Source: an uncultured Oligoflexia bacterium (lineage in GTDB: Bacteria; Bdellovibrionota; UBA1018; UBA6935). Taken from it: a stretch of 64,000 nt of DNA. The stretch lies in the NCBI GenBank assembly GCA_964013565.1, contig CAXGWU010000001.1, positions 93,601-157,600 on the forward strand, written 5' to 3'. The translations under genes and the position numbers were made by a program. Position 1 is the stretch's first letter; each line of letters starts with the position of its first letter. Under the pieces are notes generated by a model, which was not told the DNA's origin, did not search any database, and saw nothing but the letters and a program-made list of their open reading frames with translations. Shown here in pieces: positions 496 through 52,861 of the stretch.

Positions 496-1368
496 ATGAG
501 GTTTACTTTTTTTATTGGTTTATTATTGTTTTCAACGTCCCTTTTTGCAGAAACTCTGTCTCACCAAATGGATCGTTTTCGGGTTCAAATTTTGAAATCT
601 ACCGTAGAGCCTTATGAAGAATCGCTTGGTCCGATTGTCTTTATCAAAGCTCCAACAGTGTTAGAGCAGAGTGTTTGGTTTACTCAGCTTAAAAAAATGA
701 TGAATGAACTTCCTAAAGAAGTGAATGTTTCTGTCATTTTGTATGGACCTCAGACTAAACCTGAAGTGTTAGCATCTCCTCATCATTGGGTGAACACCTC
801 ACTAACCCCACCTTGGAGTATTCAAAAGAAATTTGAAGCAGTTTATCGGGAGAAGGTAGGAACCTCAGAAACTTCATTGAAGGAATTTTCTGAAGCGTTT
901 TTTAAGTTTCATTTCATGCATGGAAATTTAAATTATGTTCGAATAATCAGAAATGAAATTTCAACTCTTGTCGCAGGTTTTTATTTTTCAGAAGATCCAA
1001 AAGAAAGAAAAATTTATTTTGATCGAATGATTCAACTAGACGGTTTAGTTACAGGAAGTATTCATGAGCCTATCGTTCATTTTGTGACTGAACATATGAT
1101 TGAGGCATTGAAAACATCTATGAATAAAGCAATAGAAAGCTTCGTATTAGATTTATTGAAGAAATGGAAGCATACGTCTGCTTCAATGTATGTTGATTTA
1201 TTAGAGTCGTTTACGAAAGAACTCAAGACTCGTTTAAAAAATAAAGGTTTTGAATCTGATTTATCTTCAAAAAAAGTTCGAATGATTGTGAGTATGCATA
1301 AGGCTTTGATCATTATCCAAGCTAATCAACCTTGTCCGACTCATTTTAAAGCACTTAAAGATGATTAA
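496..1368 (+). CDS. hypothetical secreted protein with C-terminal CxxxF motif
   Basis: 290-aa ORF with signal peptide MRFTFFIGLLLFSTSLFA. Its single cysteine lies in the C-terminal QPCPTHFKALKDD. No family recognised. Confidence 0.6.
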   Translation: MRFTFFIGLLLFSTSLFAETLSHQMDRFRVQILKSTVEPYEESLGPIVFIKAPTVLEQSVWFTQLKKMMNELPKEVNVSVILYGPQTKPEVLASPHHWVNTSLTPPWSIQKKFEAVYREKVGTSETSLKEFSEAFFKFHFMHGNLNYVRIIRNEISTLVAGFYFSEDPKERKIYFDRMIQLDGLVTGSIHEPIVHFVTEHMIEALKTSMNKAIESFVLDLLKKWKHTSASMYVDLLESFTKELKTRLKNKGFESDLSSKKVRMIVSMHKALIIIQANQPCPTHFKALKDD

Positions 1369-8310: not shown

Positions 8311-9795
8311 TTATCGTTTACTGTTAAAAGACAAAAATACACGATTGCATTTTAAATTTTCCCAGCTTTTTTGGTGATCTTGATAAGATTTCACAAGGTT
8401 ATCCAGTATTCTGTTTTTGAAAGGAGCCTTTTCAGAGAAAATTCTTGTTACTTTTTTGCTTGTCATTGAAATTTTTTGAATCAATGTAAAAAGGGTTACC
8501 GAAGGCTGAACGTCTCTTAGAACAGTATTGAGAATGTTTTCAAATTCTTTAGAGGAGATTTTCTTGTTTTTTCGTGCTACGGCTGTTTGTTCAAGAACGA
8601 GAAGAGGGATCCAGCGGTTTTTATAGTTTTTTGAAATTCTATGATAGAATTCAAAAAATTTAGAAATATCTTGTTTTTTACTTTCTTTGTTGAATGGTTT
8701 GTAAAAATTAGCAATTTCAGAATTGATAGATTCAATGTTTATTTTTTCTTTTTCCATTTTTAAAAGTAAATCTTCTTCATAATTCTTTTTTGAGATTCTT
8801 TTTTTTGTCCTATTCTTGATTTTGAATTGGTAGCCTAGCGCTTGAGCTTTTTTTATGACTTCCGCTAAAAAAGAATCGCTTGTAACAAGTTCGTAAATCG
8901 CTTTTTGATATCTAAGGAGATTCATTCTTACATCCGAAGACTTGGGGCCGAGTGACTTGGCGTAGCTATGATTGTTTTTATCTGTTGTAATTTCTGCAAA
9001 GCTTTGATTCCACGCGCCTACATAATGTTCATATCCAACTTCAGCAAACTTTGTTGAGACTTGATCATAGTAGTGAAGAGGAACGATGTTTTTATGATAT
9101 TCTGTTTGATCTGCTTGTTCTAAATTTTTTAATGTAGTTTCTTGAATTTTTCTTTTTTCCTTTAGTTCATATATGGATTCTCGAAAGGTTGGGGCAACTA
9201 CGCCTATAAAATAAAGTCGAGAAATGATGTCTTTGAGGTTTCCCCCGGAGTTTTCGTAGAGTCGGTACATTGCAGCAAGACAAGCTCGTCCTTGTCGTCC
9301 ATTTCCTTTAGAAACGGTGTCTACGAGTATGAGAGGTCTACCATTCATTCCATTTTTTAAGTCAAACCCTTTGCTTTTAAAAAGGCTATAGATTTGTTCG
9401 TCTGTAGGGTTGAATTTTGGACTAAAATCAGGATCCATTCCAAAAGTTGCTTTACTCATCCCCACTCTAATTACTTTATTGGGTTCTCCGATGCTATTGA
9501 AAAACCCTTCAATAATATCTGAAAATATTAGACTATCTCGACCTAAGAAGCCAAAAACTGCGTCTGGATAGATAAAAGATAAATGAGCGATAAATCTTGG
9601 TGCCTCTTTTTCTATAAATTGAAACCAATCAGGAAAAGGATTGTTTCCAGGAATTTCTTTTAAAACAGATTCCACCTTCTTCATAGATGGTCTTACGTTT
9701 TGATTGATTAAATTATTAATATCTTGGTCTTTTTGAGTCCAAGATAACATAGGAGAAAATAAGATAAGTAAGGCAATATATATTTTTGTTTTCAT
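8311..9795 (-). CDS. exported hypothetical protein, GRD-family paralogue (PRTase-like motifs, tentative)
   Basis: Signal peptide MKTKIYIALLILFSPMLSW. FGFLGRDSLIFSDIIEGFF..GEPN..IRVG and GRPLILVDTVSKGNGRQG resemble the HGPRT-type VLKGGYKFFADLL and VLIVEDIIDTGKT loops. Full-length paralogue of 16931-18463. C-terminal KCNRVF motif. Confidence 0.45.
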   Translation of the reverse strand: MKTKIYIALLILFSPMLSWTQKDQDINNLINQNVRPSMKKVESVLKEIPGNNPFPDWFQFIEKEAPRFIAHLSFIYPDAVFGFLGRDSLIFSDIIEGFFNSIGEPNKVIRVGMSKATFGMDPDFSPKFNPTDEQIYSLFKSKGFDLKNGMNGRPLILVDTVSKGNGRQGRACLAAMYRLYENSGGNLKDIISRLYFIGVVAPTFRESIYELKEKRKIQETTLKNLEQADQTEYHKNIVPLHYYDQVSTKFAEVGYEHYVGAWNQSFAEITTDKNNHSYAKSLGPKSSDVRMNLLRYQKAIYELVTSDSFLAEVIKKAQALGYQFKIKNRTKKRISKKNYEEDLLLKMEKEKINIESINSEIANFYKPFNKESKKQDISKFFEFYHRISKNYKNRWIPLLVLEQTAVARKNKKISSKEFENILNTVLRDVQPSVTLFTLIQKISMTSKKVTRIFSEKAPFKNRILDNLVKSYQDHQKSWENLKCNRVFLSFNSKR

Positions 9796-9797
9796 TT

Positions 9798-11288
9798 CTA
9801 TTTTCCTCTCATGAGTGCAATTGCATCTTCTTCTGAATCAATAAGATGAATTCTTCTTTTTAACCATTCAGGGTAATGATCAGAGATTAAGTTTTTAAGT
9901 AACGGTTTATAGAATTCGCTATTTATAAAAGCTAATTGAGAGCGCTTATTTGGATTTCCAGAAAAATCAACAAAAGTTGTTGCTAGTTCTTTCATCGTTC
10001 CATTGCCTCCAGGTCCTACAAAAATAAGGTCTTTGTCGTGCAGTAAAAAAGGAATTCGTGTTTCATAATCCATTGATTCAATGACAAATCTTTTATTGCT
10101 AAAAGAATAAGATTTCCCAATGATAATATCGATGGCAGTTCCTCCATTATCAATGCTTGCATTTGCTGCGGCTTCCATGAGGCCACCCCCCCCACCGCTT
10201 GATAAGATATATTTATTTTTTGCAGAAACTTTAGCTACGAGTTGAACTAGTTGTCTCCAGCGATAGTCAAACGAACTAGACCCAAAAAAAACCGCTTTTT
10301 TATGATCTTTCAAACTTTCAGAAATATAATCTATATCTTCAATTCCAGCTAAGTAATTAGAGATGATTAATTTAAAACTATAATCAAATTGATGACTAAA
10401 CTTTTCTTCGTTGAAAGGAATAATGCTTTTATATCTATTGGGACCCGGAGTAATAAAACTTAAGTCATTTTTAATTTTTAAGTATGAAGACTTAAATTTT
10501 CCTAATGCTTTGAAATTTAAAAAGTCTGAATCCCATTCATTTTTATAGTTAATGAGGAAATCTAGTTTATCGATTAAATGAAGAGCTAAGGCTGTAACAG
10601 AACGAGTATCACCTACTGACTTTCCTATAGAAAAAGCTTTAAGTCTTAAGTAAGGATTTTCAATTGCAATGATGTTTTCATTTAAATTTTCTTTATTTGG
10701 GTCCGCAGTAATGCCTACTCCAAGTTTCCCTAATGTTTTTTGTATATCTTTCGCTGATATTGAATCTGCATCGTAGAAAAATATTTGAGAAAAATTAGAT
10801 AGTGTTTTTTTGAGTGAATTGAGATCGACTGTGGTTGGGTAATCGGTGGTTCCAAAAAGAAGAGTGTATGGATTCATATTGGAAAACGAATCTAACCACT
10901 TAAATCTCATAAGATCTGAAAGAAATGATTTTGATTGATCTTTTCTATCTAATTTAAAAATTTCCTCTATTGATAATTCTTGAGGTTTACTACTTTTTGA
11001 TGGAAGTTTTCTATTCTTGTTTTCGTAATGACTATTGGAATAACCTTTATAAGAATATGGGCTGTCTGTATCTAGACTTGTAACTGGAGATTGATAATCA
11101 AATTGGTATGTGTTGTTAACAGCAATCTCACTTATATCAGGAACTTCATCAATTTTAGGTGGTTTGATTCCGTGAATTCCAAAAACTAAAGCGCATTGAG
11201 AAGAAAATAAATGGTCCAAATTAGAAGTAGCGTTGGATGTTAATGTATAGATGATACCTACTATAGATATCAAAAAAAGATTTTTCAT
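9798..11288 (-). CDS. exported tandem LOG/TIGR00730-like protein (degenerate N-repeat plus intact C-repeat)
   Basis: Signal peptide MKNLFLISIVGIIYTLTS. The C-terminal domain carries both LOG signatures, SSGGGGGLMEAAANAS and VGPGGNGTMKELAT. Paralogue of 15189-16880 (YETRIPFLLHDK / YETRIPLLLHEK). The single Cys lies in an N-terminal CALVF. Confidence 0.65.
   Translation of the reverse strand: MKNLFLISIVGIIYTLTSNATSNLDHLFSSQCALVFGIHGIKPPKIDEVPDISEIAVNNTYQFDYQSPVTSLDTDSPYSYKGYSNSHYENKNRKLPSKSSKPQELSIEEIFKLDRKDQSKSFLSDLMRFKWLDSFSNMNPYTLLFGTTDYPTTVDLNSLKKTLSNFSQIFFYDADSISAKDIQKTLGKLGVGITADPNKENLNENIIAIENPYLRLKAFSIGKSVGDTRSVTALALHLIDKLDFLINYKNEWDSDFLNFKALGKFKSSYLKIKNDLSFITPGPNRYKSIIPFNEEKFSHQFDYSFKLIISNYLAGIEDIDYISESLKDHKKAVFFGSSSFDYRWRQLVQLVAKVSAKNKYILSSGGGGGLMEAAANASIDNGGTAIDIIIGKSYSFSNKRFVIESMDYETRIPFLLHDKDLIFVGPGGNGTMKELATTFVDFSGNPNKRSQLAFINSEFYKPLLKNLISDHYPEWLKRRIHLIDSEEDAIALMRGK
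10186..10193 (-). repeat. G8 homopolymer (C8 on the plus strand) inside the LOG GGGxG motif codons
   Basis: Direct read: ggccaccccccccaccgc. On the coding strand this is ggt ggg ggg ggt ggc, encoding GGGGG. Confidence 0.95.
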
Positions 11289-13237
11289 TTTATGTCCCCA
11301 ATAAAATTTTTCTCACATTTTTCCTCAATATCTCCATTAATTACTTCTTTTATAAATGTTTTTTTTATGTGAAGAGATTGAGCCCATTTATTTCCGAGTT
11401 CATCTAAATAGAGGAGTCTAGTTTCGGTATCTGTGGTTGTCGGAATGAGATGACCGTAGTACCAAAGGCTCCACGTTCCATTGTGAAAATATAAACTATC
11501 TGGAGTTAAACCGTGAATATATAGATTTAAATGAACTAGATGATCAAAAAAATCCGCAAGTGCTGTCCATGCAATTGTTTCATGAATTGGAACCGCTGCT
11601 TTATTTGAAAGCTCTCTTAAAGAAACTCCTTGTGGTTCATCTATCGCAACAAAATAAAGACTGTTTCTTATCTTAGAAACAATAATTCTATTCTCTTGTA
11701 GGTGCAATAGCTCATAGTATGAAGGTGTTCCTGGGTCAAACCTAAAGATCACTTGTTTTAAATTTTTTTCTTTTTGAATGATTTCATATTTTTTCAATTC
11801 TCCAATGTTCACTTTTTTTGGCGAAGAATTAATAAAAGGAGGCTCTTTTTTTATGTCATTATTTTCATAATTTAATTCATTACTTTTTTTTCGTCTTTTC
11901 TTTTTGGGACCTTTTGAATGATTTTGGAAGTTTTGTTTATCTAGTAATTCTTTCCAAAATAAATCAATTTCTTTTTTTTTGCTTTTAAGTTCTTCTCTTA
12001 ACCATTTTGTTTTTAGTTTGTTTGAGTATTCATTTAGAGTTCTATGTTTGCTGAAAAAAGTTCTAATTGGTCCGCTATCAACTATTTGCCATTCTTTTCC
12101 ATCAAAAATAAGATTGTCAGGGTTTAATCCGGAGACATAAATGTATTTTTCAGAAGCTTTAATGAAAAATTTTTCTAGTGCTAATTTTTTTGGGTTATTT
12201 TTTGTGTCTAAAATTTTTTCATCGAGAATCGCTTCTCTTAATCGAGTTCCTTCAATGAAATTCATAAGTAGAGACTTTTTATCTGTACTCCATTTCACAT
12301 TAACTGAAGACAGACCGTTTTTTCTCCATTCTTCTGATAGCTCTATCTGTTTTTTGAAACTTTTTTGAATATCCGCACTATCGTTTACTGGAACTTTCCA
12401 AGCCCATAGTTCTCCATTTGAGTCCTTTAACTGATGAACTCTACCTGTTTTTCCAACGCCTACGGCTTCTTTTTCTAATGAGTAACCTTCCGGAATATCG
12501 ACCTCTTTAACTGAGTTAATGAGAGCTAATAATTTTTCCCAGTTTTTTTCTTCAATCAAATCTTTGGCATTTTGTAAGAACTTTCTCCTTTGGCTAACTT
12601 CGGTAATGGTATTGGCTTTTTTTAGAACTTGAAAATGAATTGGTTCGAGATCAATTTTTGGGAAAACATACCGACTCAATCGCCTGAGAGTTTTTGTGTT
12701 TGCTCGGCTTGTGATAATCCAAATTAATTCAAAATCATCTCTATAAGAGGATAGAGGAAGGATATGTTTTGTAAAAGATTCTAATTCATCTAATGGTATG
12801 ATCGCTGCTGTATAACGAAGAGAAGGAAGTAAATTTTTTTCATTACTTTGAGTGAATAGTTTAAAGAGTGTAGAAAAGTTATAAATTTTTTTGTCGCTTA
12901 AAATGCCAATTAGAACATTGTTATTGTTTTTTCCTTTTTCTGAATGCAAATATTGATTAATAATGATGTCTCTTAGACAGAAACTTTCTGTCGCTAGTTT
13001 AATATAAAATTTATCAGGTGGGTTGTTTTGTGATTTAATGATTTCATCAATGATAGCTATATTCATCGCTTTATATTCATTGCTTTTCGCCAAAGATAGT
13101 TTTTTTATAACCTGAGAAATCGCCTCCCACTGTTGATTTTCGATTAGTTTTTTGAGTCGATGTGGAACCACGGTTTGAGCATGTGCTGGTATGATAAAAA
13201 ACAGACAAGCTAAATATAAGAAAATTTGTTTTTTCAT
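11285..13237 (-). CDS. exported protein with two atypical protein-kinase-like modules
   Basis: Signal peptide ending AHA-Q. Module 1: GVGKTGRV (G-loop), WAWKV, LLMNFIEG (hinge), GLNPDNLIF, IVDSG. Module 2: FVAIDEPQGVSL, IHGLTPDSLYF. Lys-rich linker KGPKKKRRKK. C-terminal KCEKNF. Confidence 0.45.
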   Translation of the reverse strand: MKKQIFLYLACLFFIIPAHAQTVVPHRLKKLIENQQWEAISQVIKKLSLAKSNEYKAMNIAIIDEIIKSQNNPPDKFYIKLATESFCLRDIIINQYLHSEKGKNNNNVLIGILSDKKIYNFSTLFKLFTQSNEKNLLPSLRYTAAIIPLDELESFTKHILPLSSYRDDFELIWIITSRANTKTLRRLSRYVFPKIDLEPIHFQVLKKANTITEVSQRRKFLQNAKDLIEEKNWEKLLALINSVKEVDIPEGYSLEKEAVGVGKTGRVHQLKDSNGELWAWKVPVNDSADIQKSFKKQIELSEEWRKNGLSSVNVKWSTDKKSLLMNFIEGTRLREAILDEKILDTKNNPKKLALEKFFIKASEKYIYVSGLNPDNLIFDGKEWQIVDSGPIRTFFSKHRTLNEYSNKLKTKWLREELKSKKKEIDLFWKELLDKQNFQNHSKGPKKKRRKKSNELNYENNDIKKEPPFINSSPKKVNIGELKKYEIIQKEKNLKQVIFRFDPGTPSYYELLHLQENRIIVSKIRNSLYFVAIDEPQGVSLRELSNKAAVPIHETIAWTALADFFDHLVHLNLYIHGLTPDSLYFHNGTWSLWYYGHLIPTTTDTETRLLYLDELGNKWAQSLHIKKTFIKEVINGDIEEKCEKNFIGDIK

Positions 13238-15192
13238 TTTTTAAGGTTTCCAGGTGTTCCAAATAGGATTTGACATGTCGAAGTACTGTTAGAACTAAAG
13301 CTCTTATTTTTACGACTGTCATGATAAAAGAACTCTTTTAAAAAATTCATATCTGAAAGCATTTCAGTTTGAGTTTTGTCTGTAAAAAAATAAGTATAAA
13401 ATCCTTTATTGAGACGTGGAGTGTAGTCTACATTAACAATTTGCTCAGCGTTATCGACCTGAAAATTTGCGGCTTTGAAGTCTAACCAAATGTTTTGTTC
13501 TGCTGCAATTTTTTTTGCGATAAGCCATTGTTCCAATACCTGGTTTTTTATTTTTTTCGGTATTTCTTCAATTGGATTTTGAGAATATTTTGCTTCTAAG
13601 TTTTTTCCGTCAAAGTAAGTTTGTTCTACAATTACCCCTGTTGGATGTGCATAAAGTATTTTTGCATGCCTAAAATTTGGATAATTTTTTAGAATTCTAT
13701 CTTGTGTCCATTTTTGCAAAAGAGATTTACGTGCATTTTTTGGGTTTTTTGTAATTTTAATAACTCTATTTTTATCACTTAAAAATACTTGTACATTTCT
13801 ACCTTCTCCTAGATATCCTTTTAACTTATAGAGGACTGCATTATTAGAGGTTAGAACCATTGGGTAATTTGGATCATCGCTTTTTTTGATTTCCAGAGAT
13901 GAAAAAAAGTCATTTGCTCCCTCTAATGGTTCCAGATATTGCCAATCTTTCATAGCACTGAAGCCTTTTTGATGGACTTCAGATATTTCCTGAAATAAGA
14001 GTTCGTTTTTGTTTAAGTCTTTTTTGTTTTTTCTTATTTTTTCTTGATTTTTAGTGGTCTTCTTTTTTACTGGAATAATTGTTTCAGCAAGTCGTAGATC
14101 AGATACTAGTCCAAGGAGTGATATAACTTTTTGAGATAGTTTTATAGGTTTGTCACTATAAATATGAAGTGACGGTTTTGTTTTAAATTTTAGTCCTGTT
14201 TGTATAAACTTATGACGATGCTCTAGTAGATTGTGAACATGATCAGCATCCCAGTGATTAATTGCTCCTGGAATAGCGATTTGAAATCGTTGAATAGAAA
14301 AAAAATAATCAGTTTCGGTGAGTTTTTTAATAGTCTCTGAAGAGAGTTCTTCGTTGTTCCTGGTGTAATTGTTGATAATATCTTTAAAAGAAGAGTTTCC
14401 ATCTACTCTTTTTGATCTCAAATATCTGAAATCTACAAGTTTCAGGAATTGAGTTGCTTCAGATTTATTTAGGTTTTCACAAATGGCTCTTAAAATTGCT
14501 CTGGGAATTTTTCCAGACATACTTGAATCCATAAATACTAAGCCATTTTTTAATAATCTCTCTTTTGTTAGTCCGATGGAATTTAATAAATGGTAAATTT
14601 CAGAAGTTTGATGGTTGAAGATTAAGTCTCTTATTTTCCTTGATACATTAAGGGTGTAAAGAAAATTTTTATCTATAGATTTTTTTAAAGAGATAAAAAG
14701 ATATGGAGCCGTAAAGTCTCTTCCTATAAAAAATAAATTTTTATTATTAAAATCTCTTTTGATTTCATTTTCTATTTGAGCGATTACAGGAATGATGACT
14801 TCTGTTTCGTATTCTTGAGTGTAACGAATAAGTTGATCTGTTATTTTTTTAGAATCAATTGAATCTAAAGAAACAACACCGATTTTTTTGTCTAATTCAA
14901 GAGCACTATTTTTAAGTTTTGAGCGTTTATTTGACCAATGAAAAAAGAGTTCATTGAAAAACTGAGTTTTTTCTTGAGTCGTTAGAGTTTTAACTTCTTC
15001 TAAAATTAAATAGATGTCATTACGAATTGACTCTAAAATATCGGTTTGAATCCATTTTTTAAGAAATTCATCGTAGCTATTAGAGTTTTGGGCTTGAAGA
15101 GCTGATTCATAGTGATTTTCTATTACATCGCTGGAAAATACATTAGTCTCAGTAAAGCAAAATAATAGAATAAATAAAATTAATTTATTCAT
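13234..15192 (-). CDS. exported fusion of a GRD-family (PRTase-like) N-domain and an ePK-like kinase C-domain
   Basis: Signal peptide MNKLILFILLFCF. N-half: LFFIGRDFTAPYLFISL and GLVFMDSSMSGKIPR. C-half: LGEGRNVQVF (GxGxxxxV), VIKITK (VAIK-like), VIVEQTYFDG (hinge), WLDFKAANFQV (DxKxxN), NVDY (DFG-like). C-terminal TCQILF. Confidence 0.55.
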   Translation of the reverse strand: MNKLILFILLFCFTETNVFSSDVIENHYESALQAQNSNSYDEFLKKWIQTDILESIRNDIYLILEEVKTLTTQEKTQFFNELFFHWSNKRSKLKNSALELDKKIGVVSLDSIDSKKITDQLIRYTQEYETEVIIPVIAQIENEIKRDFNNKNLFFIGRDFTAPYLFISLKKSIDKNFLYTLNVSRKIRDLIFNHQTSEIYHLLNSIGLTKERLLKNGLVFMDSSMSGKIPRAILRAICENLNKSEATQFLKLVDFRYLRSKRVDGNSSFKDIINNYTRNNEELSSETIKKLTETDYFFSIQRFQIAIPGAINHWDADHVHNLLEHRHKFIQTGLKFKTKPSLHIYSDKPIKLSQKVISLLGLVSDLRLAETIIPVKKKTTKNQEKIRKNKKDLNKNELLFQEISEVHQKGFSAMKDWQYLEPLEGANDFFSSLEIKKSDDPNYPMVLTSNNAVLYKLKGYLGEGRNVQVFLSDKNRVIKITKNPKNARKSLLQKWTQDRILKNYPNFRHAKILYAHPTGVIVEQTYFDGKNLEAKYSQNPIEEIPKKIKNQVLEQWLIAKKIAAEQNIWLDFKAANFQVDNAEQIVNVDYTPRLNKGFYTYFFTDKTQTEMLSDMNFLKEFFYHDSRKNKSFSSNSTSTCQILFGTPGNLKK

Positions 15193-16880
15193 CTTTTATT
15201 CCTCTTTTTATTAAAGAAATAAATTTCTTCATCTAAAAGGCCAAAGCTGAAGAGGGTCTCTATAGTGATTTTTAATTCAAAATCGTTTTTGACAAAATGA
15301 ATTCTATCTTTAATGAATTGCGGAATTGATGAGCTGTCGATTTGATTTTTTAAGCCACTGTAATAGTCATCACCCACAAAAATGATCTCTAATTTTTCTT
15401 TTGGGTTTTCTAGAAGTTTTAGAATCGTTATCCAAAATTCTTTCATGGTTCCAGAGCCTCCTGGAACAAAAACAACAAGTTGTTTTTCGTGAAGAAGGAG
15501 AGGGATTCGGGTTTCATATCCACTACTCGAAACGGTAAGAGAATGATGTTCTTTTTCTACTTTTTTTTCTGTTTTTAGAGTGTGTTTACCCGTGATAGGG
15601 ATCCCAACTGATGGAACATGAGATGATATTGCTGCAGTATTTGAAGTTTTCATGGCACCGCCAGCTCCGCCAGTCGTGATGCTAATATCAAGAGATCCTA
15701 AGGCGAGACCAGATTTGAAAATAAGGTTCTCAAAAGGATTCTCATCCCTTCCCGTTCCAAAAACTGCAGCTCCTCTTACTCCTGTTAAATCTTCTTGTCC
15801 GATTAGAAGTTCAGTAACTTCTTTGACGATATGATCAATTTGATAATCAGAAAGGTCTGAAAGAGTTATTTTTTTTGGTTTAAATTGTTTTGTAATTATT
15901 GGGAAAATTTCTGTCTCAACGTGAGGAGAGGTACGAATAGGCTCTCCTGCAAGGTCAAATTCTTGATTAAAGTAACTTTTACTGTAGATAGGAGATGAAG
16001 GGATTTTTTTAATCGCTGTAGTAACGGTTGTAGCTTGATCAAAAATAGGTATTTCTTTAGTTCGAACTCCCATGTTTATGTTCATAAGATCTAAGTCTTG
16101 TTTCCATTGATGAAGAGAAAAGTTCCATTCTTTTTTTGGATCAAAAATAATGTCTATTTCATTATTGAATAATCCCGCAAATCCAGTTGTGGAGTCAGGA
16201 GTTGTAATTATTTTTTCCGAGGTGTTAAATAAAGCCTGTGCTCTTAAGTAGGTGTTTTTAATGTAAACTTGGCCTCTTTGTTTTGTTGGTTGATTAGAGA
16301 TACCAAAAGATGATTTTTGAGCTAGAGATTGAATTAGTTTAGCGTAAGGACTATTTGATTCGTAGAGGATAAAATATCCACGAGAAATAAATTGAGAAAC
16401 TAATTCGGTCAATTCAGTTTGCATTTGAGGATCAGGCTGTGTTCCAGAAGTCCCTGCAAGAATCGTCACTGTTTGTTTTGAATTTAGTTTTTTTAATCTT
16501 TCTAGGTTGAGGTGATCTTGAATGTACTGACCTTCAGTAGTTAATAATACCAATTCAAGTGCTTTTAGGTTTTTTTCTCTGTTTGTTTTTTTTAGACGTT
16601 GAATCTCTGAAGTTATTTGAGCTATTTGCTTTTTTACCGATTGATTTTCTTTTTTTCCAGAATTACTAAAAATTTTTTTTAGTAATCCTCTTTGTTTTTT
16701 AGAAATTTTTTTAGTATTTAAAGACGTTAATTTTTTTTCTAATTCTTTAATCCGTTCTGACTCCTGATTTAGACTAGTTAGTCGTTCTAATGTGGATAGA
16801 CGACTTAAAAAATTTTCTTCACATCCGGCTAAAGAGAAGTGATGGGCAATTAAAGTTAAAATAATAATAAGTTTTTTCAC
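15189..16880 (-). CDS. exported (lipobox) coiled-coil plus tandem LOG/TIGR00730-like protein
   Basis: MKKLIIILTLIAHHFSLAGC (lipobox LAGC, then CEENF). Lys/Glu-rich coiled coil. Degenerate first repeat (TILAGTSG..ITTPDSTTGFAG). Intact second repeat with TTGGAGGAMK and VPGGSGTMKEF. Confidence 0.65.
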   Translation of the reverse strand: MKKLIIILTLIAHHFSLAGCEENFLSRLSTLERLTSLNQESERIKELEKKLTSLNTKKISKKQRGLLKKIFSNSGKKENQSVKKQIAQITSEIQRLKKTNREKNLKALELVLLTTEGQYIQDHLNLERLKKLNSKQTVTILAGTSGTQPDPQMQTELTELVSQFISRGYFILYESNSPYAKLIQSLAQKSSFGISNQPTKQRGQVYIKNTYLRAQALFNTSEKIITTPDSTTGFAGLFNNEIDIIFDPKKEWNFSLHQWKQDLDLMNINMGVRTKEIPIFDQATTVTTAIKKIPSSPIYSKSYFNQEFDLAGEPIRTSPHVETEIFPIITKQFKPKKITLSDLSDYQIDHIVKEVTELLIGQEDLTGVRGAAVFGTGRDENPFENLIFKSGLALGSLDISITTGGAGGAMKTSNTAAISSHVPSVGIPITGKHTLKTEKKVEKEHHSLTVSSSGYETRIPLLLHEKQLVVFVPGGSGTMKEFWITILKLLENPKEKLEIIFVGDDYYSGLKNQIDSSSIPQFIKDRIHFVKNDFELKITIETLFSFGLLDEEIYFFNKKRNKR

Positions 16881-16930
16881 CGTTTATTTAGTCCTTTTTT
16901 AAAAGTAAGATTTGCTTTTTTTAAAATGAT

Positions 16931-18463
16931 TTATTTTTTATCTATTTGTGTAAAAATTCGATTACATCCAGTTTTTGTAAGATAATCTGAGATGGTTTTA
17001 GTGTGTTCCGAAATTTTCCCTCCAAATTTGTCGGAGTTTTTAAATTCATCTTCTCTTTTTTCAAACATAGATCTGAATTTTTCATCGTTTTCATAAAGCT
17101 CCCGAATAGCTTTTAGTTGATCGTCAGAAAGAGAAGGAGTGTTGCCTAGGACATAACGATAAAGTCGTTTATAATCTCTTCCTTTAATTTTCTGAGAAGC
17201 TCTTGCTCTAGTGATAGCCTGCATAAATGGGACAATGATTTTGTCTTTAAAATCTGTATTTTGAAATTGCTTTAACCATTGAAGGTAGTGATTTCCGTTG
17301 TTTGAGAGTTTGTTTGTGATTTCTCCGGGTTCATTTAAAGATTGTTCTATTTCAAAAAGGTTTTTTAGATGTTCTTTAAGTTGTTCTTGTTTTTTCTCTT
17401 CTTGAAGAGCTAATTCTTTTTTTCTTTGTTTTTTTCTTTCATTGATTTGTTGTGACGTTAGTGATTGATAAAGTTTTGAATTTCCATCTAAATCAATTTT
17501 ATAGAGTTTTAGATATTCATCTAATTTGTCTTTAAATTCATTAGATTTAATGAGTTCGATAATTATATAAATTTCTTGTAAAACAGTTTTTTTTGAAATA
17601 TTCGAAAATTGCACGCCAGAAATTGGAATAAGTTTTTCGTTTATTTCTTTAAAACCTAGCCATGAATCATGCCACTCTGAAGTCCTATGATTTATCCTAA
17701 AAAAAGTTCCATAACTTGTGCTTAATCGTGGAACCGGTACGCCGTCTATATGAGATAGTGATGATACGTTTTCGAAAAAGTTTTCCTGATCAAAGTCTTC
17801 GTTGATAGTATGTTTTAGGTTGTTGTCGCTAATATTAACAAACGCAATTTTTCCAAGAAGATCTTTTGGGTCTTTTCCTAGATTTTTGTAGGTTTCATAG
17901 AGATATCTCATCGTTAGCCTGGATTGGCTTGCTTCTCCTCCTCCTCCTCCACTGGTATAAGTTGGGCTATAGCTACTAAAATCATAGAGAACCCAAGGGG
18001 CACTTTCTGTAATGGTATCGAAGTTAATGCCTAGAGACTGAGCATATCGAACAATGGTTTCTGAGGAAGAGTTTTTAAAACTTGGAGTACTTGCGTTGAA
18101 TCTTCCTGCGCGATTAGGCTCACCTCTCAGATAGTAAAACGCTTCCAGGGCTAGACTATTTTGGATGACATCTCTTCCAAGAGAAAAATATCTTCCTCCA
18201 GGAAAGGCTTTTTCAAAACTTACAATCATTCTGGCGATATTGTTTATAGCATTAGGGTAAGCATTAGCGATAAACTCTTGATTAAGCATTTTTTCATGAC
18301 TCGGCCATGGGTTGAGTACAGTGAGCATTTCTTCGATTGTGGGAACTGTTTTTTTTTGTACTAACTCATCAATTTGATTTTCTAATTGTGTTTGATCAGA
18401 AAAAGCAAAAGAAATGAAAAGAAAGTGGAGGCTAAAAAAAATAGATTTATTTATGAGTTTCAT
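16931..18463 (-). CDS. exported hypothetical protein, GRD-family paralogue (PRTase-like motifs, tentative)
   Basis: Start taken at internal Met MKLINKSIFFSLHFLFISFAF (signal peptide). This removes the overlap with the upstream gene. YFSLGRDVIQNSLALEAFYYLRGEPN and WVLYDFSSYSPTYTSGGGGGE. Single Cys in the C-terminal GCNRIF. Confidence 0.45.
   Translation of the reverse strand: MKLINKSIFFSLHFLFISFAFSDQTQLENQIDELVQKKTVPTIEEMLTVLNPWPSHEKMLNQEFIANAYPNAINNIARMIVSFEKAFPGGRYFSLGRDVIQNSLALEAFYYLRGEPNRAGRFNASTPSFKNSSSETIVRYAQSLGINFDTITESAPWVLYDFSSYSPTYTSGGGGGEASQSRLTMRYLYETYKNLGKDPKDLLGKIAFVNISDNNLKHTINEDFDQENFFENVSSLSHIDGVPVPRLSTSYGTFFRINHRTSEWHDSWLGFKEINEKLIPISGVQFSNISKKTVLQEIYIIIELIKSNEFKDKLDEYLKLYKIDLDGNSKLYQSLTSQQINERKKQRKKELALQEEKKQEQLKEHLKNLFEIEQSLNEPGEITNKLSNNGNHYLQWLKQFQNTDFKDKIIVPFMQAITRARASQKIKGRDYKRLYRYVLGNTPSLSDDQLKAIRELYENDEKFRSMFEKREDEFKNSDKFGGKISEHTKTISDYLTKTGCNRIFTQIDKK
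17936..17950 (-). repeat. (TCC)5 trinucleotide repeat, i.e. (GGA)5 on the coding strand, encoding GGGGG
   Basis: Direct read: tcctcctcctcctcc within gcttctcctcctcctcctccactgg. Confidence 0.95.
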
Positions 18464-18464
18464 T

Positions 18465-19850
18465 TTATTTAATCTTTCTGCGTATAAATAACGTTTTACA
18501 AAGTGGAGTCTTTTTTTCTCCTGAAAATACAGACTGTAAAGTTTCCGAAATTTCAAAACCTAAATTTAAAACTGATATATCTGGCTGAGTAATGTTAAAT
18601 GAATTCGTCACAACCATGAGATCAATGTCTGGCGAGTCAATTGCTTTTTGAGCGTTTCCTGCAAGATGGCTAACAACACCAAATATCTTATTTGCACCAT
18701 GCTTTTTAAGAAACTCTGCTGACTCGGCAAGTGTTCCTCCAGAGGCAGTTTCGTCATCAACAATCGCTACAGTATGCCCTTTTACAGAGTCTCCACTAAT
18801 CCCGAGAATACGAGTCTCTCCAGTGAGAGGATTTCTTTTCTTATTGATAATTGCGAGGGGTAGGTGAAGTTCTTCTGCATATAAAGTAGCATCTTTTTGA
18901 AAACCAGCGTCAGGAGAAACGATAATAGAAACTCCCAGTTTCTTGAGTTCTTTATTGATTGTTTCTCTTCCGTTGATTTCAAAAACAGGGATAGAAAAAA
19001 AACCTACACTCTGAGGTGCATGCGGTCTTACAATTGTTATTGTTTTTACTCCTAGTCCCTCAATGAGGTCAGCAGTGAGTCTTCCTGTTACAGTAATTCC
19101 AAATTGATCTATCTTATCTGATCGAGCATAAGGAAGGTAGGGAGAGATCAGGTGAACTTGTTGCCACTTTGATTGAGTGCTATATATTTTATGTAAAGTA
19201 TCAAAAAATGATTTGTTTATTGGAGACTCAAGAGAAGATACATAAAATATATTGTATCCAGAGAGCTTTTTATTGTTGGGGTTCCATTCAGATTCTTGAA
19301 TGACTGGGATATTGAGTTGTTTTGATAAGGTGTCTCTCAATGAAGGGTTTGTGTCTCCTACAATTGCAAACTTTTTTTTAAAATTTTTTGTTTTTGTTTG
19401 ATATTCTGGAAAGTCATAATCTTGGTTTGCAATACGGTAAGATTCCGCCCCCGAAATTTTGAAAAGTTTTAATACAAAAGTTGAAGGTAAGGATTCAGAT
19501 TCAAAATGAACGGATATTGATAAGGCACCCATTGTTTTAGCGGTGCGAACTTTAATGAGAGCTTCCATAAGAAGGTCATCATGATCTTCAATGTTGTTTG
19601 GAATATACAGAGTTAGTTTCTGATTGATAGGATTTTTTAAAAATCGAACAAAAGTATTTCCGTTGCTAAACTCCGTTGTTTTTGTCGGAAGAATTTTACT
19701 TTCAATAGTTTCAGAATACGATTGAGTCTTTGCCTCATATCCACGAATTCCAACAAGCCATGGCTTTTTAGAAGCGATACAAACATTTGAAAAGCTAAAG
19801 CTTAAAAGAAATAAAAGTCCAAATTGTATTTTTTTTTGTGCCCCACCCAT
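18465..19850 (-). CDS. ribose-phosphate pyrophosphokinase (PRPP synthetase) homologue with signal peptide and an extra degenerate N-half
   Basis: Prs motifs LISPYLPYARSDK, SPDAGF, the flexible loop KKRNPLTGETRILGISGDSVKGH, the PRPP loop VAIVDDETASGGTL, and VVTNS. The N-terminus MGGAQKKIQFGLLFLLSFSFSNVCIA looks like a signal peptide. Residues ~50-150 repeat the Prs N-half (FSNGNTFVRF..DDLLMEALIKV). C-terminal LCKTLF. Confidence 0.7.
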   Translation of the reverse strand: MGGAQKKIQFGLLFLLSFSFSNVCIASKKPWLVGIRGYEAKTQSYSETIESKILPTKTTEFSNGNTFVRFLKNPINQKLTLYIPNNIEDHDDLLMEALIKVRTAKTMGALSISVHFESESLPSTFVLKLFKISGAESYRIANQDYDFPEYQTKTKNFKKKFAIVGDTNPSLRDTLSKQLNIPVIQESEWNPNNKKLSGYNIFYVSSLESPINKSFFDTLHKIYSTQSKWQQVHLISPYLPYARSDKIDQFGITVTGRLTADLIEGLGVKTITIVRPHAPQSVGFFSIPVFEINGRETINKELKKLGVSIIVSPDAGFQKDATLYAEELHLPLAIINKKRNPLTGETRILGISGDSVKGHTVAIVDDETASGGTLAESAEFLKKHGANKIFGVVSHLAGNAQKAIDSPDIDLMVVTNSFNITQPDISVLNLGFEISETLQSVFSGEKKTPLCKTLFIRRKIK

Positions 19851-34735: not shown

Positions 34736-34768
34736 AGCGAAGAAGATTTTCATCTCTTCGCTTTTTTT
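34736..34768. terminator. bidirectional rho-independent terminator between actF and the convergent gene
   Basis: A-run, then stem gcgaaga(a)ga / tctcttcgc (9 bp, one bulge) with loop ttttca, then a T7 run at 34762-34768. Reads as a hairpin plus U-tract on both strands. Confidence 0.8.
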
Positions 34769-35621
34769 ATAGAGTCCTGTTTCTTTTTTCTACTAATTTA
34801 AAATGCAAACTGTAGTTTTGAAGTGAGAGACCGTAAGATCCTGAATTTGCAATATATCCTTCTTTGTAGCGAATGCCACCTAAGTTTTTATGGACTTCTG
34901 GATTGAGTTTGTGTCTTAAAACACTGTGCCATTCTCCATTTTGATCTACAATTGCACCGGTCTGACTTTCTTCATTATAATAAGTTCCTTCAATTTTAGG
35001 CCCTCGATAAAAGAGAATGCTTGCTCGAGCACCAATACCGACGCGAGAATGAATTTCAATCAAGGGTCTAGCGTTAAAAGTTTCTTTCATTTTTTTGTAT
35101 TGTTCTTGAATTTGTTGAGAGAAGTTTTCGACGGCGGGTTGATTGGCGAGTACCTCACTAAGATTTTTTTCTAGTGCTTCATCGTATCCACTTGAGTAAA
35201 AAAAATGTTCTAAGAGAAGTTGAATTCTTGTAGAAGAAGTCTCAAAGGAGTGTTTGATCACTTCAAAAAGAACTGGTTTTTGAATGTCTTTTGGCCATTT
35301 TAATAGTTTGGATACAAAATCAGAGGTTGTAGTTCTGTTCTGAAACTCATAGAGATCAACAGAACGAATAACAAATGGAATTAATTCTTCACTTGGTAAG
35401 CTGAGTGAAGCTTCTCCAATTTTTTCTAAATAGTTTGAAAAATAAGAAAGATCATTAATTGAAGCGTCATGAGCTCTTGCTAAGTTCAGTCTTATGTCAC
35501 CGAGAAGTTTTTGTTTGATTCCTTTTAGGCCTGAGAATTGATAACGGCAAGTAATGGGTTTCGGTGGCTGAGCGTATGAATATAAAGAGAAAAGAGAAAT
35601 AAATAGAAGAAGCAGTTTCAT
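34767..35621 (-). CDS. hypothetical secreted protein (single Cys in N-terminal CRYQF)
   Basis: Signal peptide MKLLLLFISLFSLYSYA. 284 aa. ATGA overlap with the upstream gene. Confidence 0.55.
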   Translation of the reverse strand: MKLLLLFISLFSLYSYAQPPKPITCRYQFSGLKGIKQKLLGDIRLNLARAHDASINDLSYFSNYLEKIGEASLSLPSEELIPFVIRSVDLYEFQNRTTTSDFVSKLLKWPKDIQKPVLFEVIKHSFETSSTRIQLLLEHFFYSSGYDEALEKNLSEVLANQPAVENFSQQIQEQYKKMKETFNARPLIEIHSRVGIGARASILFYRGPKIEGTYYNEESQTGAIVDQNGEWHSVLRHKLNPEVHKNLGGIRYKEGYIANSGSYGLSLQNYSLHFKLVEKRNRTL

Positions 35622-36532
35622 CGTTTTTTACCCTTTTTGTCGTAAAATTCAGACTCACAGTGACCTAAAAGTCCACGGTGGAGTCGTTGAAATCCATTGA
35701 GTGAAGCACGGGTTGTTTTTCTAGGGAAAAAGAGGCGAACTCCTGTTTGATCAAGAGATGAAAAAATGGAAAGAACTTTGTTTTCTGTAGATGGTGAGAG
35801 ACTTGCTTGAAAAAGAACGCGTTCTCGTTGATTGATATAAATTTCAATAAGGTTTTCAGCAATGAATTGCTTTTTTTTCATTTGTTCTGAAGCTTTTTGT
35901 TCTGTCCTTATTTTTTCTAAAATAGAGACTTGTCTTCGAAGGATTTCAGCAATTTTCAAATGAAAATCTTCGACAGGACGGAGTTTGAATTCTGAAGTCA
36001 ACTCATATCCATGTTGAAGGAGTATAAGGGTATCATTAAAATAGCGAATAAAGCGACGACCATCATCTTTCAGAGCTTCTCGCTCAAGATGATTTAAGTA
36101 GGAGGGATCGCTAATGGGGAGGCGATTTCGTAAAGTGAGTCGACGGAGATAGTTTTTTCTTTGGATGACCTCTTCTTGAAGCGTTTCTTTTACCATTGAA
36201 GAAAAAGAGGGGGAGTAATCATGAATCGCATTAAGCGCAGTGATTGCTTGATTTTGTTTTCTGTGTTCAAATGCATTCATTATTTCATTTCCCATTTGAT
36301 AGAGAAGAAGAACTAATTTGTCTTTTCTTGTTTCACGGCGAATTTTTGGATCTAAAAAAAGCTCTGTAAATTCTTTAGATTTTAAGGACAATGCAATCGG
36401 ATGATTTGTGAGGACAGCGTAGACTTTTTCTTGCCATTGAATTTCGTATTCGATTTCAGGATGGGTTGAGTGTGCATGTAAGGGGAGGAGAGAGACGATG
36501 ATACCGGTAAAAAAGAGTGTTATCGTTTTCAT
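35618..36532 (-). CDS. hypothetical secreted protein (single Cys in C-terminal HCESEF)
   Basis: Signal peptide MKTITLFFTGIIVSLLPLHA. 304 aa, mostly helical-looking. C-terminal LLGHCESEFYDKKGKKR. Confidence 0.55.
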   Translation of the reverse strand: MKTITLFFTGIIVSLLPLHAHSTHPEIEYEIQWQEKVYAVLTNHPIALSLKSKEFTELFLDPKIRRETRKDKLVLLLYQMGNEIMNAFEHRKQNQAITALNAIHDYSPSFSSMVKETLQEEVIQRKNYLRRLTLRNRLPISDPSYLNHLEREALKDDGRRFIRYFNDTLILLQHGYELTSEFKLRPVEDFHLKIAEILRRQVSILEKIRTEQKASEQMKKKQFIAENLIEIYINQRERVLFQASLSPSTENKVLSIFSSLDQTGVRLFFPRKTTRASLNGFQRLHRGLLGHCESEFYDKKGKKR

Positions 36533-48553: not shown

Positions 48554-50019
48554 GGGGTCTCTTCTTTCCATTCATAAGTCATTTGAAGAAATTGATTAAG
48601 CATTTGATTGATTGAATGCATGTCTTGAGTCAAACGAGTAATGAGAGTTTGTTTACCTGGGAATGTATATTGGTGAAGATTTGCTATAGCATGAAGAAAA
48701 ACCGAGTTGGGATGGGAGAAGCTAGTTTGAGGTAATAAGCTATTTAAATAGCGTAGATTCATTTTTTCTACCCACTTCGAATAAAGATCTTCTTTTAGAG
48801 AAAGAAGCATGGATGATTGAATTTGTTCTTCTTGATGGGGTTTTATTTTTTGAAGGTAAAAATCTCTATAGAACCATGCAAGTTCCTTTAGGTGAGGTTC
48901 AAATGCGGCTAAAGAATACCAGTCTTTGTGAATGATGCGTTCTCGAGTTAAAAATCCAGAGTAGCCAAAATGTGAGAGCATTTTATGTTTATTAAATACA
49001 TGAAGGAGTTCTAGGAAAAGCTCATTTGATTCCTTTTTTGAAAGTTCAGTGGGGTTTTCAAATGCCTCACTGGTGAGCTCTATGGTTTCTTCATAAACAG
49101 GTTGAAATAAAAAATAAGCAAGTTTTTGAGCGTCTTTGGCGATTCTGTGTCCATAAATGGCTCTTTGATGTGGGGTAGTTGCTAATTTAAATTCATCAAT
49201 TGAACTAAGGTAATCTTTAGTGTGATTTGATTTTTTATGTTTTTGATAACGGGCATATGCTTGTTCTTCTACGAGTACGCCTGCAACAATGCTTCCAGCA
49301 AAAACAAGTGGATGAGCTTTTGCTGGTGTTGCAGCTCGATTGACTCCTCCGAACAGAAGAGCACCTCGTTGAATCATTTTTCCTATGAGTGCTTCTGCTA
49401 AGAAGCTACCGCTAACAAAACTTCCTAGTTTAAAAAATAAGTCTGTCGTTACAGGGCCATTAAGAAGAGGAAAGGGATCAGAGGGAAGAGCTTCTAATTG
49501 AATGAGATGAGAAGGGGGGGCTTTCTCTGTTGCAGATCGAGAAAGAAATTCTCCAGTAGATTTTCCAGCAACAAAGCCAACAACTGGGAGTGTGCCTCTT
49601 AAAAATTTAAAATAAGAACTTATTTTTTCTGGGTGTTTTTTTAGAATGAAGTAAAAAGCAAGGGCAAGTCCTATTCCACTTACAGTTCCAATTCCCGCTC
49701 CCGCATCGATTGTTAAATTTCGAATTCTTTGAGAGCCTTTGGCACAATGACTTTCCCAGTGTGTTTGTAGATCGATAGCAATGGATGGAAGTTTATTGGG
49801 ATCTATTTTTTCACTTAAAATGAGTAACGCATTTGAGTAGTTTTCATTGTCTAGTGAGAATACTTTTTGAATAAGTAAATCAGAAGAAATTAAGTTTTCT
49901 GTGGTTGTTTGAGCTGAGTTTACTCTAGTTATGATTTCTTCAAGTGAGTTATTAAGTGCTTTAGTTTTACAAATTCCGAAAGCGAGTTGTGGAATAAAAA
50001 AAAGAAAAAATAATTTCAT
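48550..50019 (-). CDS. hypothetical secreted/membrane protein with Gly-rich hydrophobic segments
   Basis: Start at MKLFFLFFIPQLAFG (ATGA overlap with the upstream stop). Segments AGAGIGTVSGIGLALAFYFIL, LPVVGFVAGKSTG and LVFAGSIVAGVLV. Confidence 0.5.
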   Translation of the reverse strand: MKLFFLFFIPQLAFGICKTKALNNSLEEIITRVNSAQTTTENLISSDLLIQKVFSLDNENYSNALLILSEKIDPNKLPSIAIDLQTHWESHCAKGSQRIRNLTIDAGAGIGTVSGIGLALAFYFILKKHPEKISSYFKFLRGTLPVVGFVAGKSTGEFLSRSATEKAPPSHLIQLEALPSDPFPLLNGPVTTDLFFKLGSFVSGSFLAEALIGKMIQRGALLFGGVNRAATPAKAHPLVFAGSIVAGVLVEEQAYARYQKHKKSNHTKDYLSSIDEFKLATTPHQRAIYGHRIAKDAQKLAYFLFQPVYEETIELTSEAFENPTELSKKESNELFLELLHVFNKHKMLSHFGYSGFLTRERIIHKDWYSLAAFEPHLKELAWFYRDFYLQKIKPHQEEQIQSSMLLSLKEDLYSKWVEKMNLRYLNSLLPQTSFSHPNSVFLHAIANLHQYTFPGKQTLITRLTQDMHSINQMLNQFLQMTYEWKEETP

Positions 50020-52649: not shown

Positions 52650-52861
52650 GGAGTTTTTATAACGCAATAAGTCATTGTTTTCAATGAAGAAGGTTCGTAG
52701 GGCCTTTGATTCAAATTTCAGGTTCGACCCATGCATTTATTTGAAATTACTATTAAAATTGTAACGATTTAGTCTGGAACTTCGAATAAGTTCTATTACA
52801 GGCGAAAAATAGTACTTCTAAAAAGGAAAGTTTGTTTCGATTGACTCGATTATCAATCTTT

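Follow-up and report, generated by a model that had tools for sequence, protein, structure and literature searches.

Seven tightly packed genes for predicted exported, cysteine-tagged proteins, including a Prs homologue, in an uncultured Oligoflexia bacterium

The window analysed here is a stretch of 64,000 nucleotides from an uncultured Oligoflexia bacterium (assembly GCA_964013565.1, contig CAXGWU010000001.1, positions 93,601 to 157,600), in which positions are counted from the first letter. Its open reading frame (ORF) map contains seven co-directional minus-strand ORFs, tightly packed between positions 8311 and 19850 and named here P1 to P7. Their predicted products are a homologue of Prs, the enzyme that makes 5-phosphoribosyl 1-pyrophosphate (PRPP), two proteins with a LOG-type domain (LOG fusions), two members of a family that we call GRD, and two proteins with kinase-like domains. 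All seven are predicted to be exported, and all carry a short cysteine-containing tag near one end.

P1, 18465-19850, minus strand: predicted exported Prs-like ribose-phosphate diphosphokinase, 461 amino acids
P2, 16931-18463, minus strand: predicted exported GRD-family protein, 510 amino acids, paralogue of P7
P3, 15189-16880, minus strand: predicted exported LOG-fusion protein, 563 amino acids, GTG start
P4, 13234-15192, minus strand: predicted exported two-domain protein, 652 amino acids, kinase-like at its C-terminal side
P5, 11285-13237, minus strand: predicted exported atypical kinase-like protein, 650 amino acids
P6, 9798-11288, minus strand: predicted exported LOG-fusion protein, 496 amino acids, paralogue of P3
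P7, 8311-9795, minus strand: predicted exported GRD-family protein, 494 amino acids

Start and stop codons overlap as ATGA at 15189-15192, 13234-13237 and 11285-11288, and the remaining gaps are of 1 nt (18464), 2 nt (9796-9797) and, in a single case, 50 nt (16881-16930), an arrangement that matches exactly the one described in the original prediction, which had been made from the letters of the window without database searches. On gene spacing alone we infer that the seven genes would be co-transcribed; scans for consensus promoters and terminators returned fewer sites than shuffled sequence and were uninformative on this point.

Related clusters were found in at least ten other lineages, through the genomic contexts of P4 and P7 homologues and by scanning 185,579 species genomes with peptides specific for the Prs family, and the genes are co-conserved in these relatives. 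Where a lineage has an organism label, it is that of a metagenome-assembled genome (MAG) assigned to Bdellovibrio, Bdellovibrionales, Pseudobdellovibrionaceae, Oligoflexia or 'delta proteobacterium'; the module has been found so far only in Bdellovibrionota/Oligoflexia. The other matches of the scan were ordinary Prs genes that align in the canonical core only, all of them from Chloroflexi except for two Myxococcota MAGs. The recurrent set consists of one copy of Prs, one to three LOG fusions and one to six GRD proteins, frequently with P4-type and P5-type kinases and occasionally with a RelA_SpoT protein, an α/β-hydrolase or a HipA-like protein. Its neighbours change from lineage to lineage, so that what is conserved is the cluster as such. 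The RelA_SpoT protein (PF04607, 1.6e-9) bears a signal peptide, has an N-terminal C-SQV-Y tag and is encoded within the clusters of loci L003 (12006-13013, minus strand) and L011 (11520-12527, minus strand); adjoining its gene are those of an untagged protein of 1298 amino acids with no Pfam match and of a third LOG fusion. At L006 (18928-21917, minus strand) the cluster adjoins ppk (polyphosphate kinase) and ppx (exopolyphosphatase), an arrangement seen in one lineage only that may be a coincidence.

Each of the seven products begins with a stretch that contains K/R, continues into a hydrophobic core and ends this region in a cleavage-type site of small residues, and signal-peptide-like N-termini recur in 94% of 68 cluster members, which upholds the signal peptides that the original prediction had assigned to every protein. 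The members are also poor in cysteine, with 0.29 per 100 amino acids against 0.95 in neighbouring genes and a median of one Cys per mature protein, and so strong a depletion is consistent with exported proteins. Export of all seven proteins is predicted on these features.

The most unusual feature of the cluster is a shared terminal cysteine tag, newly observed here and not mentioned in the original prediction. Nearly every member has one mature Cys, contained in a terminal C-[polar]-[polar]-[LVIA]-[LFIYV] motif (C-x-x-Φ-Φ). Counted from the C-terminus, the tag Cys of the Prs, GRD, P4 and P5 families is at a distance of 5-19 residues; the LOG fusions and the RelA_SpoT protein have the tag at the N-terminal side, soon after the signal peptide. 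Of the 68 members 64 carry it, as compared with 14 of 105 non-member ORFs from these loci (Fisher 2e-28); among 150 GRD representatives its frequency is 83%. The last tag residue is lineage-specific, being F in the seven window proteins (7/7), Y in L003, L in L006/L007, L016 and L017, F in L008 and in L013, and I/V in L012 and L014. A tag that is common to all components and co-varies in its last residue implies one shared partner or mutual pairing; the whole set would be handled either by a sorting or docking factor or by a tag-to-tag disulfide assembly.

In its general design the tag recalls the MYXO-CTERM/myxosortase tag of Myxococcota, likewise a short terminal motif with an invariant Cys that is carried by many Sec-exported proteins per genome (PMC11980579). 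However, MYXO-CTERM needs a transmembrane (TM) helix and an Arg-rich tail (PMC11980579), whereas in the tag described here the Cys is followed by no more than 5-19 residues, a TM helix is lacking, and the position is N-terminal in the LOG fusions and RelA/SpoT. Its assignment to MYXO-CTERM was rejected because neither a TM segment nor a hydrophobic helix is present.

A lipoprotein reading of P3 was also rejected. The LAGC that had been taken for a lipobox occurs in P3 only and is not conserved in its orthologues, in which the Cys is kept as part of the C-x-x-Φ-Φ tag; in the other LOG fusions the Cys is placed 3-60 residues past the signal peptide in non-lipobox contexts. The apparent lipobox is probably the Cys tag overlapping it.

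Outside the operon, four more single-Cys proteins of the window have signal peptides and a terminal C-x-x-x-F:

496-1368, plus strand
34767-35621, minus strand
35618-36532, minus strand
58484-59092, minus strand

Two of their tags are C-terminal (CPTHF and CESEF) and two N-terminal (CRYQF and CNELF); the four proteins have no Pfam domain and no relative in the other clusters. The tag is hence not confined to the operon and may be common to a broader group of secreted proteins encoded by this genome. Conversely, the GRD protein P0049 at L040 (7620-15336, plus strand) has a basic amphipathic tail (e.g. KKKHPKQSWFSFFRKSS) instead of the Cys tag, and several other tagless GRD representatives also end in basic tails. 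GRD and LOG-fusion genes are still clustered at L040, with no Prs within 10 kb.

With 180.4 bits against a cut-off of 113 (3.9e-53), P1 clears the curated threshold of TIGR01251; it scores far below every equivalog cut-off, matches PF13793, PF14572 and PF00156 in Pfam, and has the Thermus Prs entries 7pn0/5t3o (6.5e-29) as its closest PDB relatives. Both YLPYARSDK and VDDETASGGT, on which the Prs assignment had originally been made, are found in it. The Prs core comprises residues 152-446, with YARSDK, HAPQSVGFF, NKKR and DDETASGGT, and is preceded at residues 45-110 by an extra, partial copy of the Prs N-domain that aligns to Prs residues 17-81. The sole intact flag motif of the protein, FSNGNTFV, is situated in this extra copy and not in the core. 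Five P1 orthologues in the family alignment retain DDETASGGT as ribose-5-phosphate loop, the K-x-R loop of the catalytic site, HAPQSVGFF, YARSDK and the flag-like motif. As judged from these matches, P1 is a Prs homologue with a partly duplicated N-domain: it shares with class I Prs/PrsA (TIGR01251) the ribose-5-phosphate loop, the K-x-R loop, the HAxQ segment and the ARSDK motif, and differs from it in having a signal peptide, the additional N-domain copy and a C-terminal Cys tag (C451-KTL-F). More distant Prs-like genes, 35-39% identical to P1, with hydrophobic N-termini and without the C-terminal tag, were found at L018 (9845-11263, plus strand) and L019 (9848-11464, plus strand); no cluster members are present in the 10 kb upstream of either, and both contigs end just downstream.

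P3 and P6 are paralogues (BLASTP 6e-23), and the presence in both of the LOG signatures noted from the window was confirmed by profile comparison. The LOG domain of P3 (residues 372-524) contains TGGAGGAM, R458 and PGGSGTMKE, and that of P6 (residues ~333-490) contains GGGGGLMEAA and PGGNGTMKE. P3 exceeds the Pfam cut-offs of both PF03641 (7.4e-8; 33.1 against 27) and PF18306 (7.2e-7); P6 exceeds that of PF18306 (7.8e-8) and remains just under that of PF03641 (25.3 against 27). TIGR00730 is below cut-off for P3 and for P6 (1.6e-6), as is TIGR00725 for P6 (2.1e-10). A profile of 12 LOG fusions matches LOG crystal structures at 3.2e-22 and 3.4e-21, and the residues invariant in those 12 members (G404, G405, G408, M410, R458, P473-G475, G477, T478 and E481) align with the LOG motifs. 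P3 and P6 thus resemble LOG and type-II LOG phosphoribohydrolases (TIGR00730, PF03641; e.g. TT1465 and PpnN-like nucleotide nucleosidases) in the GGxGxM loop, the Arg and PGGxGTxxE. Unlike the known LOG enzymes, they are predicted to be exported, and their LOG domain is preceded by an N-terminal tag, a linker and a domain of about 200 amino acids without recognisable relative. In P3 the order is signal peptide, tag (C20-EEN-F), coiled/low-complexity linker, N-domain (~120-330) and LOG domain; the tag of P6, also N-terminal, is C32-ALV-F. The conserved N-domain, encoded at 15891-16523 (minus strand) in P3 and 10389-10931 (minus strand) in P6, is characterised by the motifs YDADS, GIGIS, NxYLR and PDSxxG and an invariant W. 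Profile and Pfam searches found no significant relative of it, the best being a weak L7Ae/YbxF-like stretch (E 0.12), and a tandem SLOG pseudo-dimer was rejected, since an hhalign comparison between the N-domain and the LOG domain found nothing. The LOG fusions of L003, L006, L007, L008, L010, L012 and L017 often end in an acidic/aromatic tail (e.g. DDDYWD, DYEYDLDDWY, DWDSEWERWGY; alignment columns 780-839), which P3 and P6 do not have and which may be a second short interaction motif.

The similarity of P2 to P7 spans their full length (BLASTP 1.7e-15). The name of the family derives from an invariant G-R-D, which is accompanied in the family alignment by a likewise invariant Asp and, next to it, a T/S/G-rich loop; none of 13 members has a Pfam match. 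In P2, a phosphoribosyltransferase (PRTase)-fold-like N-domain (~60-320) with the G-R-D and an acidic D-loop is followed by a helical C-region and the tag C500-NRI-F. P7 is built likewise, with the PRTase-fold-like N-domain at ~60-330, a helical C-region and the tag C483-NRV-F; G85-R86-D87 follows strand 80-84, and D159, with the T/S/G-rich loop behind it, follows strand 155-160. The top structural matches to the P7 model were the polysaccharide ribofuranosyltransferases 8A0C (Bcs3 CriT) and 7SHG (Thermobacillus composti), and HGPRT was matched as well. In Bcs3, the CriT module resembles PRTases and transfers ribofuranose-5-phosphate in a PRPP-dependent manner, with S678-R679-D680, E818 and a 5-phosphate loop in the active site (PMC10299916); it belongs to the family named gPRT, which is normally paired with a phosphatase (PMC11231755). 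The GRD invariants (G85-R86-D87; D159 and the T/S/G loop) appear to fall at strand ends equivalent to those of CriT.

P2 and P7 are probably gPRT-like, PRTase-fold transferases. As modelled, P7 would share with the gPRTs (8A0C and 7SHG, with the HAD partner PRP/CrpP) a PRTase-like α/β core with added helical bundles, and in both families an R-D pair would follow one strand and an acidic residue with a phosphate-binding loop a later one; gPRTs need PRPP, which the Prs gene of this operon would supply. On the other hand, known gPRTs are cytoplasmic, are encoded in polysaccharide loci and have a HAD phosphatase, whereas the GRD proteins have signal peptides and the Cys tag, are encoded beside Prs, LOG and kinases, and show no detectable sequence similarity to gPRTs. 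The family is sharply bounded, given that 326 of the 346 GRD representatives found among 1.84 billion by an exhaustive profile search have values below 1e-10. One metagenomic member, P0052 (1296 amino acids), continues after its GRD domain into a weakly HAD-phosphatase-like region (613-815; Acid_phosphat_B E 0.0026, NIF E 0.006), an echo of the gPRT-PRP pairing. Another, M899_1769 (WP_021270006.1; L039 10001-15595, plus strand), is a stand-alone GRD protein of 1864 amino acids from the cultured marine predator Bacteriovorax sp. BSW11_IV, with a signal peptide and a C-terminal C-MSY-L tag, and is a possible experimental entry point.

P4 has only three homologues among 5.8 billion clusters. In its N-domain (~110-330) the motifs, IGRDF and further on FxDSSMSGKIP, are laid out in a GRD-like manner, and its C-domain (~430-600) contains G462xG464xxV, K479, D571-F-K-x-x-N576 and D589, followed by the tag C640-QIL-F. 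G462, G464, V467, K479, D571, N576 and D589 are invariant in four homologues. The AlphaFold2 model is of moderate confidence (predicted local distance difference test, pLDDT, 62), and Foldseek matched it to the PDB entries of PRPF4B, CLK1, PknB and APH(2'') at ~2e-4; no Pfam match to the domain reaches threshold. At the level of the modelled fold and of its motifs, the C-domain is protein-kinase-like. P5 has a first kinase-like domain at ~250-400 (GxGKxGxV, AWK, N372/N375 and the DFG-type D387), a degenerate second copy at ~500-620 and the tag C641-EKN-F. Its kinase matches are all below threshold: P5 itself matches the PADLOC PD-T4-6 kinase at 9.3e-6, and its homologues match PF00069 at 2e-5 to 4e-6, below the gathering score. 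The family was assembled from neighbouring loci, as the homologue search gave only a fragment of P5 itself. P5 would thus be an atypical kinase-like protein. Among the relatives, kinase and GRD domains are fused in either order.

LOG enzymes free ribose-5-phosphate from nucleoside monophosphates (NMPs), and Prs converts ribose-5-phosphate and ATP into PRPP and AMP. Considering that (i) Prs, LOG and GRD form a constant triad; (ii) GRD paralogues are many, and (iii) kinase domains are present as fusions, all of which fit a PRPP-making, phosphoribosylating module, we propose, as a tentative model whose chances we place a little short of even, that the cluster encodes a Sec-exported multi-enzyme PRPP module that would use ATP and nucleotides from outside the producer, probably from prey, and transfer ribose-5-phosphate to acceptors. 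The layout of the genes, the identities of the domains, the export-type N-termini, the co-conservation and the tag with its covariation are shown; what each enzyme catalyses, how intermediates pass between them, what accepts the ribose-5-phosphate, where the module acts and what the tag does are inferred. The LOG-type domains of P3 and P6 would hydrolyse nucleoside 5'-monophosphates to base and ribose-5-phosphate, which P1 would turn, with ATP, into PRPP and AMP. Recycling of this AMP by LOG would give a net conversion of ATP to adenine and PRPP, with ribose-5-phosphate being catalytic. P2 and P7, and possibly the N-domain of P4, would then move ribose-5-phosphate from PRPP onto one or more acceptors, a hydroxyl if they act as gPRT-type enzymes, and the kinase modules (the P4 C-domain and P5) would act on the same acceptor or product. 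Since all steps need ATP or nucleotides, which the producer's own periplasm lacks, the module would have to work where these are available outside its cytoplasm; the most plausible place is the interior or the surface of a permeabilised prey cell. A further-reaching version, which we hold to be possible but rather doubtful, is that of an exported 'PRPP factory' run on the ATP and nucleotides of the attacked cell, in which new phosphoribosyltransferases and kinases would attach ribose-5-phosphate covalently to prey macromolecules or envelope, the set being sorted or assembled via the Cys tag.

Several points weigh against this model. The signal peptides were judged by a heuristic (a K/R start and a 10-residue hydrophobic window). 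The models of P4 and P7 were built from 4-5 sequences each, and that of P7, from five sequences, is only moderately confident (pLDDT 64); with it, Foldseek returned nothing significant (best E 0.07, SIS-type isomerases) and does not confirm the gPRT match. Even with E values of up to 10 admitted, the 13-member GRD profile misses both 7SHG and 8A0C, leaving no sequence bridge to solved gPRTs; no HAD phosphatase partner is present in the window cluster or in most relatives, and the genomic context points to no acceptor for the GRD proteins. Of the three PRTase-like paralogues recognised in the original prediction, P2 and P7 stand as a pair, whereas the P4 N-domain shares only the motif layout: its assignment as a GRD paralogue was rejected at an hhalign E of 0.019 (probability 2.4%), and a hidden Markov model of 154 GRD sequences found no significant member of the P4 family (best E 0.013, for one member). 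Of the kinase-like domains recognised there, that of P4 has a real and invariant motif set and is backed by Foldseek, and that of P5 lacks, in the alignment, the canonical HRD catalytic Asp. Most relatives are MAGs or metagenome contigs whose predatory lifestyle is assumed from taxonomy, and the well-studied Bdellovibrio bacteriovorus is absent among the Prs-like scan matches.

The same enzymes could instead act as a poison of the nucleotide pool, a reading that we consider unlikely. The Prs-LOG futile cycle (ATP + H2O -> adenine + PRPP) would be delivered to collapse prey adenylates in a Tas1-like manner, with RelA/SpoT added in some lineages and the GRD proteins and kinases serving as separate effectors or accessories. 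Prs and LOG are indeed the best-supported enzymes of the set, and both the tagged, signal-peptide-bearing RelA_SpoT protein within the L003 cluster and the unrelated tagged enzymes of other clusters (α/β-hydrolase, extra kinases) would suit an effector arsenal. However, the GRD genes (1-6 copies) accompany Prs and LOG in almost every lineage and stay with LOG even where no Prs is nearby, and such near-constant company points to a functional link rather than to a loose arsenal; besides, the cycle alone would leave PRPP without a role. Tas1, a RelA/SpoT-type (p)ppApp synthetase, is a type VI secretion system (T6SS) effector that acts alone. Toxins of this type are comparable to the module in an ATP-consuming pyrophosphoryl transfer for use outside the producer, and differ from it in being T6SS effectors of a different fold. 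Prey nucleotides could also be harvested rather than spoiled, being processed from NMPs through ribose-5-phosphate to PRPP, with additional phosphorylations, into importable forms, with the GRD proteins as salvage N-phosphoribosyltransferases. The enzymology would be coherent, the proteins of known structure that resemble the P7 model include HGPRT, and it is established that Bdellovibrio and like organisms use prey nucleotides. Nevertheless, extracellular PRPP would spend ATP on a labile, charged compound with no importer encoded nearby, GRD proteins have no sequence similarity to salvage PRTases and their nearest folds are O-glycosyl transferases, and harvesting needs neither kinase fusions nor a common Cys tag; we give it little chance.

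It is also improbable, in our estimation, that the product is an extracellular signal nucleotide or nucleoside-like metabolite, in parallel to the cytoplasmic SLOG/PRTase conflict systems and the Ter-associated PRTase clusters. The pairing of SLOG and PRTase genes is a recurring theme of nucleotide-centred conflict systems (PMC6459960), and P1 and P6 give weak PADLOC matches to ShosT, PsyrT and PsyrA; but these matches cover only the generic PRPP loop or a Rossmann segment, for which reason a defence-system reading was rejected, and no sensor/effector module is present in the cluster. The SLOG-PRTase pairs (YpsA-PRTase, ShosTA, PsyrTA) are the nearest thematic precedent, in that SLOG-superfamily and PRTase-fold proteins occur together, but each of them comprises two genes and works in the cytoplasm, lacks Prs, kinases, signal peptides and the tag, and has a SLOG of the DprA/YpsA type and not LOG. 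A last possibility, to which we attach a similarly low probability, is a gPRT-PRP-like decoration of the producer's own envelope, in which capsule or lipopolysaccharide (LPS) would receive ribofuranose or ribose phosphate and the hydrophobic N-termini would be membrane anchors. The nearest folds to the P7 model are polysaccharide ribofuranosyltransferases, and it is well established that sugar kinases with a protein-kinase fold, WbdD and WaaP, act in LPS assembly. Yet no cluster contains a glycosyltransferase, ABC transporter, Wzx/Wzy or polyprenyl-linked gene, the K/R-first N-termini would put the catalytic domains in the periplasm, without PRPP and ATP, and the strong Cys depletion fits exported proteins. 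Furthermore, the known cases of extracytoplasmic pentofuranose addition use lipid-linked donors (PMC11127046).

The original prediction could not match the operon to any described system, and the literature likewise contains, as far as it was searched, nothing resembling the whole, that is, exported Prs, LOG, PRTase-fold proteins and kinases that are Cys-tagged and restricted to Bdellovibrionota. PRPP synthesis is, to our knowledge, regarded as a strictly cytoplasmic housekeeping step, and it is because PRPP is unavailable outside the cell that the known extracytoplasmic additions of pentose rely on lipid-linked carriers. If the proposed exported PRPP module is real, the combination of Prs, LOG, PRTase-fold proteins and kinases outside the cytoplasm would amount to biochemistry of a new kind, extracellular or within prey, and may serve bacterial predation as a new weapon or processing route. 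GRD would be a new protein family, of about 350 sequence clusters and without a Pfam model, and the Cys tag may be the mark of a pathway by which a whole class of secreted proteins of the phylum is sorted or assembled.

The cluster stands out from its surroundings by a GC content of ~31-34%, as compared with 36-42% in the flanks. Upstream are the divergent genes thyA-folA, and the ORF map leaves 337 bp between them and P1 (19851-20187), the presumed promoter region of the cluster; downstream, a gene for a UvrD/PcrA-type helicase follows on the same strand at a distance of 80 nt. A second low-GC patch (~31%) at 50016-52736 (minus strand) is occupied by an ORF of 906 amino acids that has one cysteine, no tag and no Pfam match. 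The same sequence as that of the window is found in a TARA Oceans scaffold and in the MAG GCA_002450715.1.

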